Positions 14,670 to 22,600 of a stretch of 64,000 bases of DNA are shown here, in pieces (position 1 is the stretch's first letter; the number at the start of each line of letters is the position of its first letter). A program made the translations under genes and the position numbers. The DNA comes from Thermoanaerobaculia bacterium (GTDB taxonomy: Bacteria; Acidobacteriota; Thermoanaerobaculia; UBA5066): positions 32,001 to 96,000 of the forward strand of contig CAWFJJ010000029.1 in the NCBI GenBank assembly GCA_963816185.1, in the 5' to 3' direction. Under the pieces are notes generated by a model. It was not told the DNA's origin. It saw only the letters and a list, made by a program, of their open reading frames with translations, and made no database searches.

Positions 14670-15380
14670 TCAGGACTCGAGGAAGGAGGATACCGCGCGG
14701 TGCCACTGCTCTTCGGACAGCAGGGCCGGGGGTGGCAGGACGAGCTCACCTCCGTCCGCCGCCGCAAGGCCGAGCTCTCCTTCGAGGAGATGCGCGAGCC
14801 GCGCCTCCTCGGCATGAAACCAGGCGCGCGCTTCCTCGCCTGTCGGAAAGCTCCGGTACGTATCCGAGGCCGGCCGCACCGAGAAGAGCCAGCCCCTCAC
14901 GTAAGGCGAGGACAACAGGAGGGACGGGTGGCGCCGCACGGCGCCGTTTACGGCCATGACCGTGCCCGTCACGGGCGAAGAGACGATCGCCGTCCGCGCG
15001 CCGCACGCGACCGTCACGGCCGGGCGTCCGGCCGCCAGGACGCTGCCCGGAGGCGGAAGATGGACGGCGGTGACGCCGTGGAGGAGGTGCCCCGCGAGAC
15101 CGTCGAGACCCACCCGCAGGTGACCGTCGGACTCGTCCAGCCACGCGTGGGACGGCGTGTACCGCCGGCGCTCGGCGAGAACGAGGCCGTCGATCTCCAC
15201 GAGGCCGAGCCGGCGCGCCCTGAGCCGCCGGATCGTCCTCTCCGCCACGCGATAGAGGCCCCACCCCACGAGGATGGGCGCGAGGGCGACGGCGACGAAG
15301 GCGACGAGAAGCAGAAGCCGGATGAGGAGGCCGACCACGAAGATGGCGGCTCCCTGCAAGAAAGTCAGAAGGGCTTCCAT
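14670..15380 (-). CDS. Membrane-anchored GcvH-like protein lacking the lipoyl lysine (copy 2)
   Basis: N-terminal TM segment(s); HAW...RVGLD, SPVTGTVMAVN and PYVRGW motifs; C-terminal ADGG extension. An alternative GTG start lies at 15389. Confidence 0.85.
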   Translation of the reverse strand: MEALLTFLQGAAIFVVGLLIRLLLLVAFVAVALAPILVGWGLYRVAERTIRRLRARRLGLVEIDGLVLAERRRYTPSHAWLDESDGHLRVGLDGLAGHLLHGVTAVHLPPPGSVLAAGRPAVTVACGARTAIVSSPVTGTVMAVNGAVRRHPSLLLSSPYVRGWLFSVRPASDTYRSFPTGEEARAWFHAEEARLAHLLEGELGLAAADGGELVLPPPALLSEEQWHRAVSSFLES

Positions 15381-15385
15381 GATGC

Positions 15386-15733
15386 TCACCTCTCTTTCGG
15401 AGCGGCGTGGCACGTGACGCAATCGTCGAATCCGTGCGCGCTCTTGCCGTCGTGGCACTTGCCGCAAGCAGCGCCCTTCTCCATGTCCTTGTGCTTGAGT
15501 CGGGGCGCCTGGGCCTCGGAACGGCGGAGGATCGGAAACAGAGCCGGGTGGCAGGTCGTGCAGTCGGGCTTCCCGGCGTCGACGTGCGTCGCGTGGCGGA
15601 ACGTGACGACGCCCGGGCTGTCCGAGCCCTGCGGGAGAGCGCGGTCGTTCGGCAGGCGGGGGAGGCTGCCCGCGAGAACCGCCCCCGTCAGAGCGAGCGC
15701 GAGAAGGAGGGCGACGGGTTGGAGATGTCTCAT
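15386..15733 (-). CDS. Periplasmic trihaem c7-type cytochrome c
   Basis: Signal peptide; FRHATH; three haem motifs CTTCH, CGKCH and CVTCH. Confidence 0.9.
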   Translation of the reverse strand: MRHLQPVALLLALALTGAVLAGSLPRLPNDRALPQGSDSPGVVTFRHATHVDAGKPDCTTCHPALFPILRRSEAQAPRLKHKDMEKGAACGKCHDGKSAHGFDDCVTCHAAPKER

Positions 15734-20416: not shown

Positions 20417-20963
20417 GGGAGTCTCCGATCTCGTCGGCATTCTCGAGGAAGAGGGCCCGGCACGTTTCGCACAGCTCCGGCTGCTTGGCGTCCACGTCTT
20501 TCAGGCTCGAGGAGCGCGCCATCGCGCAGAGAGAATCGTGGCAGTGCAGGAGTCCGAACGTGTGCCCGAGCTCGTGGACGGCTTCGGTCCGAAGTCGCAC
20601 CGGAAGCCGGGCGGACTCGCCAGGCAGACCGGCACCGACGAGGCGGGCCGTCGACACGACGGCCGCATGGCCCCTGAGCTGAGCCTCGCCGAAGACGAAC
20701 GTCAGGACCGGGATGAAGAGGTCCGCATCCGTCAGGCCGAGGACGCGCGCGGCTCTCTGCGGCCGACGCGACGCGAGCCAGAGGAGAACGCGGTGCGAAG
20801 CGTGCTGGTTGCGCCGCGCGTCGAACGCATCGATCGGGCGACCCGCGGGGAGCTCGAGACGAGCCGGGAAGCGAAACACCCTCTCGACGTGCGCACGCAC
20901 GCTCTCGAGGAGTCCTCGGTCGGCGTCCCCCGTTCCGATCCACCACAGGGCGACGTCGTTCAC
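20379..20963 (-). CDS. Archaemetzincin family Zn-metalloprotease (peptidase M54)
   Basis: HELGHTFGLLHC...CAM...DVDAK...CETC; LTFVFGEA; GTG start overlaps the kinase stop. Confidence 0.9.
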   Translation of the reverse strand: MNDVALWWIGTGDADRGLLESVRAHVERVFRFPARLELPAGRPIDAFDARRNQHASHRVLLWLASRRPQRAARVLGLTDADLFIPVLTFVFGEAQLRGHAAVVSTARLVGAGLPGESARLPVRLRTEAVHELGHTFGLLHCHDSLCAMARSSSLKDVDAKQPELCETCRALFLENADEIGDSHEQEEHADPASR

Positions 20964-22600
20964 GTTGCGGCGGCCGGGGCAGGGGCCGCGCCCCCCTCTC
21001 CGGCGAGCGGGAGCCGGATCGTCATCGTCGTTCCACGCCCGACGCGGCTGTCCACGCGCATTGAGCCGCCGTGTTTCTCGACGATCCCGTAGACGACCGA
21101 GAGCCCGAGCCCGGTGCCCTTCTCTTTCGTCGTGAAGAAGGGGTCGAAGATACGCGAGAGGTGCTCGGGCGCGATCCCGGCGCCCGTGTCCGCCACCGAG
21201 ATCTCGAGCGCGCTCTTTTCGGGGAGGAGACGGGACTCGAGCGTGAGCGTGCCGCCTGCTGGCGTCGCGTCGCACGCATTGAGGAGAACGTTCAGGAATG
21301 CCTGCCGGAGCTGGCCGAAGTCGGCGTTCACGGCGCCCGTGCCCTCGAGCGTCTTCACGACCGTGATGCCCTGAAGCTGCATCTTGTGCTGCGCGAGCGA
21401 AAGGGCCTCTTCCAGTGCGCGGACCGGGTCGATGATCTCGAGGTCGAGGGGCCTCGCGCGGGCGAAGTCGAGGAGGTTGCGCACGATGACGGTGCAGCGC
21501 TCGGTCTCGCGCTGAACGAGGAACAGGTTCTTCAGGCAGGCCGCGCGCGTGGCCTCGTCAGGAGACCCGGCCTCGAGCATGCGCGTCATGAGGCGCGCGA
21601 ACGTGAGGATGCCCGAGAGGGGGTTGTTGATCTCGTGCGCGATGGACGCCGACAGCTGACCGAGCGAGGCGAGCTTCTCGCTTCGCGCGAGGACCTCCTG
21701 CGCGCTCTTGAGCGCCGCCGTGCGGTCCTCGACCTGGTGTTCGAGGTCGTTCGTGAGGTTCTCGAGGTCGCGGCGCGTCTTCGCGAGCGATTCGTTCATC
21801 TCGTTGAACGAGTTTGCGAGGATCCCGAGCTCGTCCCACGAGCGAATTGCGAGAGTGGCCGATAGGTCGCCGTGGCGGACCCGCTGCGTGGCCTCCACGA
21901 GCGCGGCGACCGGGCGGAAGACGATGCGCCGCGCGACGCCGTTGACGAGCGCGGCGAGGGCGATCACCGCGGCCAGCGCGCCCGAGAGCAGGCGCAGCGA
22001 CTGCCTGTGCAGGCTCGCGTCGATCTCCTTGAGCGAGATGCCGATGTCCACGACTCCGAGGACGTGCTTCTCCGGCGGATGAGCGTGGCACGAGGCCGTC
22101 GCGCAGGCGGTTTCGTTGTAGATCGGAGTCACCATGCCGAGCACGCGGTGGCCGTTCGTCGTGAAAAGCCGGCTGCGTTCGGACGTCGTGGGCGCCACGA
22201 GCGGCTGGCCCGCCGCGTGACACGCGGTGCAGGCCTCCGCATCCTTGTCGACGGACGCGCCGATGTCGCGCGGGTTCGTCGAGAACATGACGCGGCCCTC
22301 TTTGTTGAGGACGCGGACTTTCTCGATCCCCTCGAGGCGCCCGATGCTCTCCATGATCCGATAGGCGCCGCGCCTCTGGTCTTCGAGCATGAGATCCCGC
22401 GTGCTGGTCGCGATCGTGCTCGAAAACAGTGCGGCGCCCCGGACGACCTCGCTGATGAGCTGCGCCCGCTGGGACCGGATCGACAGGAACGCGAACAGCG
22501 AGATGGTCGCCAGCGAGACCGCGGCGGCGGCGGCCGTCAGCTTGAACCCGAGATGCCGGTGGAACGGGATGCCGAGCAAGGTGTCCTCCGGCCTGAGCAT
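20960..22600 (-). CDS. Sensor histidine kinase with haem-c motifs in the periplasmic sensor, HAMP, HisKA and HATPase domains
   Basis: CTACH and CATASCH between two TM helices; AHEINNPL; FDPFFTTK...GTGLGL. An alternative GTG start lies at 22618. Confidence 0.94.
   Translation of the reverse strand: MLRPEDTLLGIPFHRHLGFKLTAAAAAVSLATISLFAFLSIRSQRAQLISEVVRGAALFSSTIATSTRDLMLEDQRRGAYRIMESIGRLEGIEKVRVLNKEGRVMFSTNPRDIGASVDKDAEACTACHAAGQPLVAPTTSERSRLFTTNGHRVLGMVTPIYNETACATASCHAHPPEKHVLGVVDIGISLKEIDASLHRQSLRLLSGALAAVIALAALVNGVARRIVFRPVAALVEATQRVRHGDLSATLAIRSWDELGILANSFNEMNESLAKTRRDLENLTNDLEHQVEDRTAALKSAQEVLARSEKLASLGQLSASIAHEINNPLSGILTFARLMTRMLEAGSPDEATRAACLKNLFLVQRETERCTVIVRNLLDFARARPLDLEIIDPVRALEEALSLAQHKMQLQGITVVKTLEGTGAVNADFGQLRQAFLNVLLNACDATPAGGTLTLESRLLPEKSALEISVADTGAGIAPEHLSRIFDPFFTTKEKGTGLGLSVVYGIVEKHGGSMRVDSRVGRGTTMTIRLPLAGEGGAAPAPAAAT

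Follow-up and report, generated by a model that had tools for sequence, protein, structure and literature searches.

We asked what kind of complex is encoded by a block of minus-strand genes (14670-22618) in which subunits of a respiratory type stand beside proteins with a GcvH fold, in a window of 64,000 nucleotides, this being the whole stretch of DNA that was analyzed. Every gene named in the original prediction was found. A histidine kinase, an archaemetzincin and a sigma54 activator lie upstream, followed by a -24/-12 promoter and a seven-gene structural operon that runs from a Cys4 mini-protein through a 28-aa peptide, a Tat 4x[4Fe-4S] protein, an NrfD-like protein, TM-GcvH-like 1 and a trihaem c7 to TM-GcvH-like 2. 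The gene set is predicted to encode a membrane complex with iron-sulfur and cytochrome c subunits that is linked to quinone, and its features are as follows.

20960..22618, minus strand: sensor histidine kinase (HK) with HAMP, HisKA and HATPase_c domains
20379..20963, minus strand: archaemetzincin (peptidase M54), Pfam PF07998 at 64 bits against a cut-off of 24.4
19037..20440 (alternative start 20416), minus strand: NtrC-type sigma54-dependent response regulator with Response_reg, Sigma54_activat, AAA_lid_14 and HTH_8 domains
19004..19042, minus strand: tandem TTGAGAA-N-AAC(G)CC repeats, overlapping the stop of the regulator
18970..18991, minus strand: palindrome GCGCCTAT-N6-ATAGGCGC, specific to the window
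18941..18958, minus strand: IHF-like site TTACAAACAGTTGACACC (TTACAA-N4-TTGACACC), between repeats and promoter
18904..18918, minus strand: sigma54 -24/-12 promoter element TGGCTCGAGCCTTGC, with a comparable element in aligned relatives
18646..18885, minus strand: Cys4 mini-protein "CysR", 79 aa, unannotated family
18563..18649, minus strand: 28-aa single-helix membrane peptide, with a hydrophobic ORF at the same place in relatives
17646..18551, minus strand: Tat-exported 4x[4Fe-4S] protein (HmcB/HybA-like), Fer4_11
16409..17653, minus strand: NrfD-family integral membrane, quinone-interacting subunit (HmcC/HybB-like), PF03916 at 67 bits
15744..16412, minus strand: TM-GcvH-like 1, GCV_H at 66.8 bits
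15386..15733, minus strand: trihaem cytochrome c7 with signal peptide and three CxxCH motifs
14670..15380, minus strand: TM-GcvH-like 2, GCV_H at 59 bits, placed also by family alignment
14608..14640, minus strand: GC-rich hairpin followed by CUUCUGUC, visible in the sequence, a possible terminator

Conservation and regulatory sites

The tight gene packing noted earlier is borne out in the structural operon, where the coordinates give overlaps of 4 or 8 nt and gaps of 5-11 nt. The gene set recurs under seven phylum-level labels, sometimes with shuffled gene order, and its carriers include Acidobacteriota, Anaeromyxobacter, Methylomirabilota, Nitrospinota, Syntrophus and other Desulfobacterota. 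Close relatives keep nearly everything: NrfD and FeS in 24/24, CysR in 23/23, the kinase, M54 and regulator trio in 20/20, c7 in 27/29 and the second GcvH in 27/27. The corresponding counts in distant lineages are 37/45, 28/41, 25/34, 31/49 and 36/46; the eight of 45 distant TM-GcvH loci without an adjacent FeS and NrfD pair are mostly lone Anaeromyxobacter paralogues, and some of the 18 of 49 distant loci that have no c7 beside them lack any multihaem ORF nearby. Desulfobacterota-type loci, with their shuffled order, hold FeS, NrfD and TM-GcvH together in 10/12 and M54 in 11/12, with a small 4-haem cytochrome within the operon in 7/12. This co-occurrence, together with a literature search that found no description of the gene set, agrees with the proposal that the block is one real, widely conserved unit and that it is apparently uncharacterized.

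The upstream genes carry the features of a two-component switch. The periplasmic part of the kinase has two haem-c binding motifs, CTACH (CxxCH) and CATASCH (Cx4CH), and in 43/43 rows of orthologues a CxxCH is followed ∼42 residues on by Cx3-4CH. The activator contains a GSFTGA motif, and rpoN is present in the same genome (214.9 bits). Among 53 related loci, 45 have a -24/-12-like element ahead of the Cys4 gene, compared with 53 of 770 random windows, and the TTGAGAA-type repeats, the most conserved block in an intergenic alignment of the window and 18 relatives, are a candidate upstream activator site. The IHF-like site is conserved in the closest relatives aligned and matches seven of nine specified positions of what we take to be the IHF consensus. 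The palindrome had been proposed as an enhancer, a role that we do not retain because it is not conserved in the aligned relatives. At the other end of the operon the claim of a terminator stands in part: the hairpin is there to be seen, but a consensus scan did not list it, and its fold (-33.1 kcal/mol for 71 nt) is not unusual for its composition (z -1.42; 15 of 200 shuffled sequences do as well), leaving a terminator role possible.

The iron-sulfur, NrfD-like and cytochrome core

The FeS protein has an RRTLFK motif, four cluster motifs that together hold 16 cysteines, and a TM tail at its C terminus; its best solved relative is FdnH (1kqf_B, 8.7e-33). Its best-scoring NCBIfam model is HmcB (343.2 bits, cut-off 420; HybA, 247.2 bits, cut-off 263), and that of the NrfD-like protein is HmcC (478.4 bits, cut-off 550; HybB, 278.6 bits, cut-off 450). 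As all of these scores fall below the curated NCBI cut-offs, the pair would belong to a separate subfamily. The trihaem c7 matches PF14522 (Cytochrome_C7; 49.3 bits, cut-off 24.8) and TIGR04257 (64.9 bits).

Judged by family membership, this core is the known part of the unit, a cytochrome c:quinone module of the Hmc/Nhc/HybAB type, and the missing "catalytic subunit" is therefore no anomaly. Complexes of the Hmc/Nhc, Qrc and Cbc types use the periplasmic multihaem cytochrome itself as redox partner (accessible parts of PMC8076601 and PMC13591261), a place that the trihaem c7 would fill by analogy, and the earlier label of an orphan falls away. The FeS and NrfD pair might instead anchor a catalytic subunit encoded elsewhere, be it a hydrogenase, a formate dehydrogenase or a molybdoenzyme; the HybA-like (247 bits) and HybB-like (279 bits) scores and a hydrogenase at most 10 kb away in two related loci (L035 and L067) speak for this highly improbable arrangement. 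Of 84 related loci, however, only 3 have a hydrogenase-like match and 3 a molybdopterin-like match, one of the latter being the query's own locus, which upholds the view that neither enzyme type contributes a subunit to the unit and shows that homologous clusters do not always include one. The operon, moreover, usually holds a dedicated small cytochrome. Because each of the genome's two NiFe hydrogenases is equipped with anchors of its own, to which the pair is only 37-39% identical (37% for the NrfD-like protein against the hydrogenase-linked HybB-like protein), we conclude that the pair is not a hydrogenase anchor.

The accessory proteins

The new part of the unit is its accessory set of lysine-less GcvH folds, Cys4 module and archaemetzincin. 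TM-GcvH-like 1 consists of an N-terminal helix, a GcvH fold and a helical C-terminal extension in which a DGG is invariant, and its AF2 model (pLDDT 85.8) has the fold of GcvH, LbpA and GcvH-L (1onl_A, TM 0.91; 1dxm_A, Z 19.4; 5a35_A, Z 12.3). TM-GcvH-like 2 has a hydrophobic N terminus of ∼40 residues, a basic linker, the GcvH fold and the same DGG extension. The sequence motifs of GcvH are for the most part kept, whereas the membrane anchor and the DGG extension are additional and the lipoyl lysine is absent: its alignment column holds Gly in the first protein and Ala in the second, and the position after it varies across the family (K, R, Q, H or E). On this alignment neither protein can be lipoylated, and the description of these subunits as non-lipoylated and membrane-anchored is sustained. 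Their genomic partners are respiratory, unlike GcvP/T/L, and the canonical GcvH of the genome is a separate gene (C8:380488); the two are not glycine-cleavage components.

In 48 of 61 TM-GcvH members the helix is followed by more Lys and Arg than precede it, and the GcvH folds are predicted to face the cytoplasm. In other organisms, natural fusions join the fold to a cytochrome across a membrane helix, in the order signal peptide, 4-haem cytochrome, helix, GcvH (P0224 and P0225) or helix, GcvH, helix, c7 (P0073). The helix weakly resembles HmcD, whose model TM-GcvH-like 1 matches at E 0.0022 (17.9 bits, cut-off 34). In all, 12 of 61 members match it, the best of them at E 2.4e-5. A complex prediction for NrfD with TM-GcvH-like 1 scored 0.45, compared with 0.00 for the best of three controls. 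Of 80 solved complexes 58 reached the mark on this scale, as did 2 of 110 mismatched pairs, although at scores up to 0.60 only 7 of the 80 solved complexes reached it, together with both passing mismatches. At least 80% of the contacts are shared between runs, and the partner has a pLDDT of at least 73. As a sequence search found no solved homologue of the NrfD-like protein, memory is unlikely to lie behind this prediction, and the modeled contact lends weak support to membership in the complex.

CysR starts at the ATG at 18885, a TTG at 18948 having been rejected. It matches nothing in Pfam or NCBIfam, its 103 homologues are all hypothetical, and its relatives fall into 312 representative clusters at E≤1e-3; residues C8, P9, C19, K26, C39 and C47 are invariant. 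Because 17 of 20 long CysR relatives scanned have GCV_H behind one or two CysR modules, we assign CysR to the GcvH fold as its companion. In further fusions CysR-GcvH is joined to a receiver domain (P0331) and 2xCysR-GcvH to a NUDIX domain (P0364). At the position of the small peptide, a hydrophobic ORF of 22-43 aa passed the filter in 50 of 54 loci, and 49 look like a membrane helix by eye.

The archaemetzincin, whose GTG start overlaps the kinase stop, shares with other archaemetzincins the HExxHxxGxxH motif (here an intact HELGHTFGLLH), the four Cys that follow it in its Cys motifs and a Pfam M54 match above cut-off; against NF033823 it scores 143.6 bits (cut-off 145). Inspection by eye revealed no evident signal peptide in either the archaemetzincin or CysR. 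What sets this archaemetzincin apart is that it is bacterial and lies within a gene set of respiratory and two-component proteins, with which it is kept at 20/20 close, 25/34 distant and 11/12 Desulfobacterota-type loci, even where gene order is shuffled, and in the last group it heads the structural operon. No paper tying an archaemetzincin to a histidine kinase was found in literature listings.

A working model and its known relatives

Our preferred reading, held with moderate confidence, is a regulated respiratory module in which a sigma54-switched core of the Hmc/Nhc/HybAB type bears a cytoplasmic GcvH/Cys4 cap. The kinase, through its periplasmic two-c-haem domain, would sense periplasmic redox state or a haem ligand and phosphorylate the NtrC-type activator, which would turn on the sigma54 promoter before the seven-gene operon. 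Family membership suggests that the periplasmic c7 would exchange electrons with the Tat-exported FeS protein, itself seated on the NrfD-like subunit, which would reduce or oxidize menaquinone, the path running in either direction. The two GcvH-like proteins would be integral accessory subunits with their helices packed beside the NrfD-like subunit, that of TM-GcvH-like 1 in the HmcD position, and together with the Cys4 mini-protein the lysine-less folds on the cytoplasmic face would make up a cap poor in cofactors, which we take to serve structure or regulation rather than to carry electrons. The archaemetzincin would be a conserved cytoplasmic partner and is probably a maturation or turnover protease for a subunit of the complex. 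The notion that the GcvH fold is reused as a structural, docking or regulatory subunit holds for its non-lipoylated, membrane-anchored state, and the function of the cytoplasmic module is one that we infer.

It is decidedly unlikely that the GcvH-like and Cys4 proteins act as a redox arm in the cytoplasm, in the manner of HmcEF or DsrMK. CysR would then be the site of an Fe-S cluster or redox-active dithiol, with the GcvH fold carrying a cytoplasmic substrate, as might fit the four invariant cysteines, which are spaced without CxxC pairs, and the Cys found three residues before the former lysine position in many GcvH2-type and fused members. Cytoplasmic arms do exist in Hmc and Dsr complexes and are described in part in the available text of PMC11434368. 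However, the operon products include no haem b ligand or other trans-membrane wire, there being no haem b subunit and no conserved His in the added helices, and the lipoyl lysine is absent, the basic residue adjoining it is not conserved, and the GcvH hairpin Cys is not invariant.

A merely structural cap, for its part, leaves unexplained the four invariant cysteines, the constant metalloprotease and the receiver fusion to CysR-GcvH. These features, along with the NUDIX fusion and the place of M54 at the head of Desulfobacterota-type operons, would suit a mainly controlling device, unlikely in our judgment, in which the GcvH-like, Cys4 and archaemetzincin proteins gate the NrfD-type module post-translationally in response to cytoplasmic redox state or phosphorylation, for example at assembly or at the cytoplasmic proton half-channel; N-side and P-side half-channels have been proposed for NrfD-like subunits (available sections of PMC8076601). 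Against this, P0331 is the single receiver fusion among the 20 long CysR relatives scanned, and the genes occupy stoichiometric, subunit-like operon positions.

E. coli hydrogenase-2 HybA/HybB belong to the same FeS and NrfD subfamily (247 and 279 bits), and HybA is likewise a tail-anchored Tat substrate, but the unit here has no hydrogenase, and the HybOABC-like cluster of the genome lies elsewhere. Cbc3 (CbcVWX) and Cbc4 (CbcSTU) of Geobacter are inner-membrane sets linking the menaquinone pool to periplasmic cytochromes (excerpts of PMC13591261); going by their description, they resemble our unit in combining a cytochrome c, an FeS and a membrane subunit, and the accessible descriptions of the Cbc clusters do not mention GcvH-like, Cys4 or M54 genes. 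Sigma54 control of a quinone-cytochrome oxidoreductase is not unprecedented, given Geobacter BccR/CbcBA, in which a sigma54-dependent response regulator switches on CbcBA as redox potential falls (10.1101/2021.04.15.440034, in its available part), although CbcBA is a bc-type enzyme and the unit here is of the NrfD type.

NhcABCD and HmcABCDEF of sulfate reducers share with the unit a Tat 4x[4Fe-4S] subunit, an NrfD-like subunit of 10 helices, a small "D" subunit with a single helix and a multihaem cytochrome in the periplasm. The last has three haems here (four in some other loci), not the nine of the Nhc or the 16 of the Hmc cytochrome. The accessible part of PMC8076601 calls the Nhc cytochrome "nine-heme" and reports NhcC-type genes also in Acidobacteria, Bacteroidetes, Chlorobi and Nitrospirae. 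Unlike Nhc and Hmc, the unit scores below the equivalog cut-offs, has no HmcE or HmcF and bears a cytoplasmic GcvH fold on its "D" helix, and to their plan it adds a second GcvH-like protein, a Cys4 protein, a micropeptide and an archaemetzincin.

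Gene layout and regulatory sites

The block runs from position 22618 to position 14670 on the minus strand of a window that has a G+C content of about 69% and whose nearest public relatives are metagenome-assembled Thermoanaerobaculia (Acidobacteriota) genomes. Its genes were read from the ORF listing together with Pfam and NCBIfam scans.

Features of the block, in gene order
First in block, minus strand: histidine kinase with HAMP, HisKA and HATPase_c domains; CTACH and CATASCH in its periplasmic stretch
Second, minus strand: archaemetzincin of Pfam family M54 that contains HELGHTFGLLH and Cys motifs; start codon (GTG) overlapping the stop of the kinase gene
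Third, minus strand: NtrC-type activator with receiver, sigma54-interaction and HTH_8 domains and GSFTGA; start overlaps the end of the archaemetzincin gene
Between the activator and the structural operon: 88-nt spacer plus leader
18646-18885, minus strand: Cys-rich protein (CysR), 79 aa, without a family match
Next, minus strand: hydrophobic micropeptide, 28 aa
17646-18551, minus strand: FeS protein with a Tat signal, four [4Fe-4S] motifs that hold sixteen Cys, and a membrane tail at the C terminus
16409-17653, minus strand: NrfD-family membrane protein, after the FeS gene
15744-16412, minus strand: TM-GcvH1, 222 aa, one N-terminal helix and a GCV_H domain
15386-15733, minus strand: cytochrome c7, 115 aa, three CxxCH motifs
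14670-15380, minus strand: TM-GcvH2, 236 aa, a hydrophobic N terminus of roughly 40 residues and a GCV_H domain

Neighboring genes among the seven of the operon either overlap by 4-8 nt or are 5-11 nt apart. This list agrees with the original prediction except at the start of the Cys-rich gene, which we place at the ATG at 18885 rather than at a TTG because the sigma54 element falls within the longer, TTG-started frame. The second gene product belongs to the M54 family by its PF07998 score (64 bits against a cut-off of 24.4) and its HExxHxxGxxH and Cys motifs, and scores slightly below the cut-off of the archaemetzincin model NF033823 (143.6 against 145 bits); we know of no established biological role for this family. 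The small cytochrome, with its three CxxCH motifs, scores as a c7 protein with both PF14522 (49.3 bits against 24.8) and TIGR04257 (64.9 against 40). On either side of the block, a 628-aa ORF joining prephenate dehydratase, DAHP synthase and chorismate mutase domains (11810-13696, minus strand) is the conserved downstream neighbor in close relatives, and a Phage_holin_4_2 family membrane protein (22662-23039, minus strand) lies directly upstream of the kinase gene in close relatives and downstream of the block in the group at 64-69% identity.

The promoter candidate, TGGCTCGAGCCTTGC at 18904-18918, has the form TGGCTC-N5-TTGC and obeys the GG-N10-GC rule. Counting elements that agree with the consensus at 9 or more of 12 positions, we found a comparable sigma54 element 32-64 nt before the Cys-rich gene match in 45 of 53 related loci, whereas 53 of 770 random 270-nt windows from those same loci contain an element with this score. 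With an activator domain (PF00158, 234.8 bits), this promoter and a genomic rpoN (Sigma54_DBD, 214.9 bits) all present, the operon is predicted from its sequence to be sigma54-dependent. An alignment of the intergenic region from the window and 18 relatives of its own class places the strongest conserved intergenic block at a tandem TTGAGAA-type repeat (19004-19042), which overlaps the activator stop codon and lies ∼90-120 nt upstream of the promoter; between repeat and promoter the closest relatives carry an IHF-like TTACAA-N4-TTGACACC site. The palindrome at 18970-18991, originally proposed as the enhancer, is perfect and is the most conspicuous candidate, but it sits in a variable stretch that is not conserved in the alignment, and we have set it aside. 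A hairpin follows the last operon gene in the sequence; the output of the consensus scan contains no terminator there, and the fold is ordinary for its composition (z -1.42). A further conserved stretch, the C-terminal R/K-E-V of CysR (18646-18660 in the window), is kept in orthologues across phyla; the micropeptide gene, which overlaps the CysR gene there, has its GGAGG ribosome-binding site in the same nucleotides, so that it is probably the nucleotide sequence that is constrained.

Conservation of the gene set and a second arrangement

At E≤0.001, 674 proteins of comparable length are related to TM-GcvH1; if named at all, they are called "glycine cleavage system H protein," an annotation of both subunits that misleads metabolic reconstructions. 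We scanned contigs of one genome per species, placed the window proteins on the resulting loci by tblastn and limited each count to loci with enough flank. The single-protein scan gave 29 loci, all labeled Acidobacteriota (Thermoanaerobaculia, Holophagales or unclassified), and the profile scan gave 320, the gene context being taken from the best 80 of these. In close relatives the set is nearly constant, with NrfD and FeS genes at 24 of 24 loci, the Cys-rich gene at 23 of 23, kinase, protease and activator at 20 of 20, c7 at 27 of 29 and the second GcvH gene at 27 of 27. At loci of ≤55% identity the corresponding counts are 37 of 45, 28 of 41, 25 of 34, 31 of 49 and, for the second GcvH-like gene, 36 of 46. 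Between the Cys-rich gene and the FeS gene, 50 of 54 loci have a hydrophobic ORF of 22-43 aa that passed the filter, and 49 of these 50 look helix-like by eye. The distant loci are labeled Acidobacteriota, Anaeromyxobacter and other Myxococcota, Methylomirabilis, Rokubacteria, Nitrospinota, Syntrophus, Chlorobiota and Bacteroidetes, and the co-occurrence across taxa on which the original prediction depended is borne out. Exceptions among them are mostly extra, stand-alone TM-GcvH paralogues of Anaeromyxobacter. Such paralogues occur at loci L055, L058, L067, L073, L077 and L083; that of L077 adjoins a cytoplasmic molybdopterin-type oxidoreductase, and that of L067 is about 3 kb from a NiFe hydrogenase. 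Within the window's phylum, TM-GcvH1 is matched at E≤1e-40 in 45 of the 401 genomes sampled (34 of 227 genera) and in none of the four others that belong to the window's order, which makes the distribution patchy. Cultured carriers among the best 80 of 320 loci are Anaeromyxobacter oryzae, A. oryzisoli, strain PSR-1 and Syntrophus aciditrophicus.

The Cys-rich protein has four invariant cysteines and no CxxC pair. Its AF2 model is moderate (pLDDT 65.5) and gave no Foldseek match at E≤1e-3, leaving the fold uncertain, and no annotated relative was found, the Atlas clusters all being "hypothetical protein." The CysR profile matches 312 representative clusters at E≤1e-3 (153 at E≤1e-10), many of them proteins of ∼300 aa with two matched stretches, and in 17 of the 20 long matches scanned a GCV_H domain stands behind one or two Cys modules. 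Other domains can precede this unit, as in P0331 (receiver domain, Cys module, GCV_H) and P0364 (NUDIX domain, two Cys modules, GCV_H). The repeated fusion argues that the Cys4 protein and the GcvH fold act together.

A Cys-GcvH fusion query found matches at E≤1e-25 in 15 of the 301 genomes sampled from a Desulfobacterota-type phylum, and 12 regions from these genomes reveal a second arrangement. Its typical order is M54, fusion protein with two Cys modules and GcvH, TM-GcvH1, FeS, NrfD, kinase and activator; ten of the 12 regions have FeS, NrfD and TM-GcvH1, 11 have M54, and seven include within the operon a small ORF that encodes four CxxCH motifs. Beside M54, five of the 12 carry a divergent ORF of ∼660 aa with 13 CxxCH motifs (L125-L129, from genomes G018, G223, G163, G131 and G253). 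The archaemetzincin stays with the set in all arrangements. That the genes are retained together despite reshuffling speaks more strongly for a functional unit than synteny would by itself. The loci L066:10762-11394, L069, L082 and L068:4973-5509, from Syntrophus and, in one case, Nitrospinae, encode a second GcvH-like protein without a membrane helix, which carries another N-terminal Cys motif, C-x13-C-x5-C-x2-C; the proteins P0328 and P0333 have both Cys motifs.

The GcvH-like subunits and their possible role

The AF2 model of TM-GcvH1, built from 61 sequences (pLDDT 85.8), shows a helix (residues 9-34) joined by a linker to a GcvH fold, after which come another three or four helices. The fold matches 1onl_A (E 2e-13, TM 0.91) and 1dxm_A (Z 19.4, rmsd 1.5 over 131 residues), and the protein scores below the NCBIfam GcvH cut-offs (75.1 against 117 for NF002270; 61.9 against 115.85 for TIGR00527), with TM-GcvH2 lower still. 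The GcvH domain resembles the barrel-sandwich domain of NqrA too weakly for the likeness to be of use (Z 3.8, Foldseek E 0.16). Aligned with HMMER, E. coli GcvH (3a8i_E) has its lipoyl lysine opposite a glycine of TM-GcvH1. Where the canonical GcvH of the same genome as the window has this lysine, TM-GcvH1 carries Gly and TM-GcvH2 carries Ala, and Lys is likewise missing at that column from all 14 CysR-GcvH fusion proteins in the alignment. The neighboring residue, often basic, varies among K, R, Q, H and E, making a displaced modification site unlikely, and we rejected it. Both subunits thus lack the lipoyl lysine, in line with the original proposal. Both TM classes and the fusions share an invariant DGG in the C-terminal extension. 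In precomputed Pfam data PF28260.1 is listed for one TM-GcvH relative, P0055.

Lysine and arginine residues are more numerous in the 20 residues after the N-terminal helix than before it in 48 of 61 family members. Natural fusions place a cytochrome and a GcvH domain across a helix: P0224 and P0225 consist of a signal peptide, a four-haem cytochrome, a helix and GcvH, and P0073 of a helix, GcvH, a helix and c7. From the charge bias and these fusions, the GcvH folds are predicted to face the cytoplasm and the proteins to belong to the same assembly as the cytochrome. Co-folding of NrfD with TM-GcvH1 lends weak support, with a score of 0.45 (best of three controls 0.00). Of 80 solved complexes 58 reached the mark, and of 110 mismatches two did; at scores of ≤0.60 there were only seven of the 80 solved complexes, along with both of the mismatches that passed. 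At least 80% of the contacts agree between runs, and partner pLDDT is at least 73.

What such an attachment might do is constrained by the added helices. A cytoplasmic redox arm like HmcEF or DsrMK is unlikely, given that neither a conserved histidine in these helices nor a cytochrome b was found in the aligned families and the block; lacking both, the complex would have no route by which electrons of the periplasmic chain could reach the cytoplasm. We favor instead a cytoplasmic cap formed by the two GcvH folds and the Cys4 protein, structural or regulatory in nature, that may be matured or turned over by the archaemetzincin. Rather doubtful, in our estimate, is the wider proposal of a hitherto unrecognized cytoplasmic module, found in many phyla, that combines the DGG-extended GcvH fold lacking its lysine with the Cys4 module and archaemetzincin. 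Such a module would dock on NrfD-type quinone enzymes and either control them or link their proton path to a redox or phosphorylation signal from the cytoplasm; it is the fusion of receiver, CysR and GcvH that hints at a control device. If this were true, a regulatory output domain for respiration would have been made from a lipoyl-carrier fold.

The FeS/NrfD core and known complexes

Among NCBIfam models the FeS protein scores best with HmcB (NF045715; 343.2 bits against a cut-off of 420), followed by HybA (247.2 against 263), and the NrfD protein with HmcC (NF045714; 478.4 against 550), followed by HybB (278.6 against 450). Since all four scores fall below the NCBI equivalog cut-offs, the pair appears to be a separate branch of the HmcBC/NhcBC/HybAB group in the NrfD family; the NrfD sequence had no match among PDB sequences at 1e-3. 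In this group the periplasmic FeS protein connects a partner in the periplasm with the quinone site of the cofactor-free membrane subunit, relaying electrons between the two; the membrane subunit is possibly also proton-conducting (PMC8076601).

We considered whether the pair could be a hydrogenase anchor like HybA/HybB of hydrogenase-2 and rejected this identity: the pair misses the cut-offs of those models and is not adjacent to a NiFe hydrogenase, and the two NiFe hydrogenases of the same genome, on another contig, each have their own anchor, with 37-39% identity to the pair. Within 10 kb of related loci, hydrogenase-like genes occur in three of 84 cases and molybdopterin-like genes likewise in three of 84, so homologous clusters do not as a rule include either enzyme. 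Because the hydrogenases have their own anchors and catalytic genes are rarely near the loci, the periplasmic partner would be the operon's small multihaem cytochrome; at loci without an adjacent small cytochrome, it is presumably a cytochrome encoded elsewhere. Nhc, Qrc and Geobacter Cbc3/Cbc4 are understood likewise, with a periplasmic cytochrome as partner (PMC13591261, PMC11434368, PMC8076601). By this precedent the absence of a "catalytic subunit" is ordinary, and the original description of the operon as an orphan is not supported, the small cytochrome taking the partner's place. The genome's two hydrogenase clusters lie a few kb apart (C8:295855-308095), one HybOABC-like with FeS and NrfD anchors and the other Hya-like with cytochrome b.

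NrfD-type modules are among the commonest quinone-coupling devices in anaerobic respiration. To these the present set would add a conserved cytoplasmic attachment found in no described NrfD-type member, built from a repurposed lipoyl-carrier fold, a Cys4 family of 312 representative clusters and an archaemetzincin. Its carriers are environmentally important (soil and peat Acidobacteriota, Anaeromyxobacter, Methylomirabilota, Nitrospinota and syntrophs), and those in culture make it directly testable.

The Hmc complex, HmcABCDEF, has a 16-haem HmcA, a cytochrome b (HmcE) on the cytoplasmic side and an HdrD-like HmcF, and in the hmc gene order hmcD follows hmcC. Although HmcB and HmcC are the best-scoring families, the sole cytochrome of the block has three CxxCH motifs rather than 16 haems, and no other redox protein, HmcE/HmcF-like or otherwise, was found among the block ORFs by Pfam or NCBIfam. 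The TM-GcvH1 gene directly follows the NrfD gene, as hmcD follows hmcC, and its N-terminal helix weakly matches the HmcD model (17.9 bits against a cut-off of 34, E 0.0022), which 12 of the 61 family members match (best E 2.4e-5). With Nhc the block shares the four-part set of cytochrome c7, Tat FeS protein, NrfD and single-helix proteins, without a cytoplasmic redox arm, and Nhc-type modules are recorded in Acidobacteria and other phyla (PMC8076601). Sigma54 control has a known case in Geobacter CbcBA, described as an inner-membrane quinone:cytochrome enzyme induced via sigma54 and the response regulator BccR (10.1101/2021.04.15.440034). In a literature search that covered few subscription journals, we found no paper linking a GcvH-like protein to HmcBC, NrfD or HybAB genes, nor Cys4 or archaemetzincin genes to such modules, and no published description of the set, consistent with its having been called uncharacterized. 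Unreported in the literature found is the accessory set of GcvH-like proteins, Cys4 protein and archaemetzincin, whereas sigma54-induced quinone:cytochrome enzymes and Nhc-type modules are already known.
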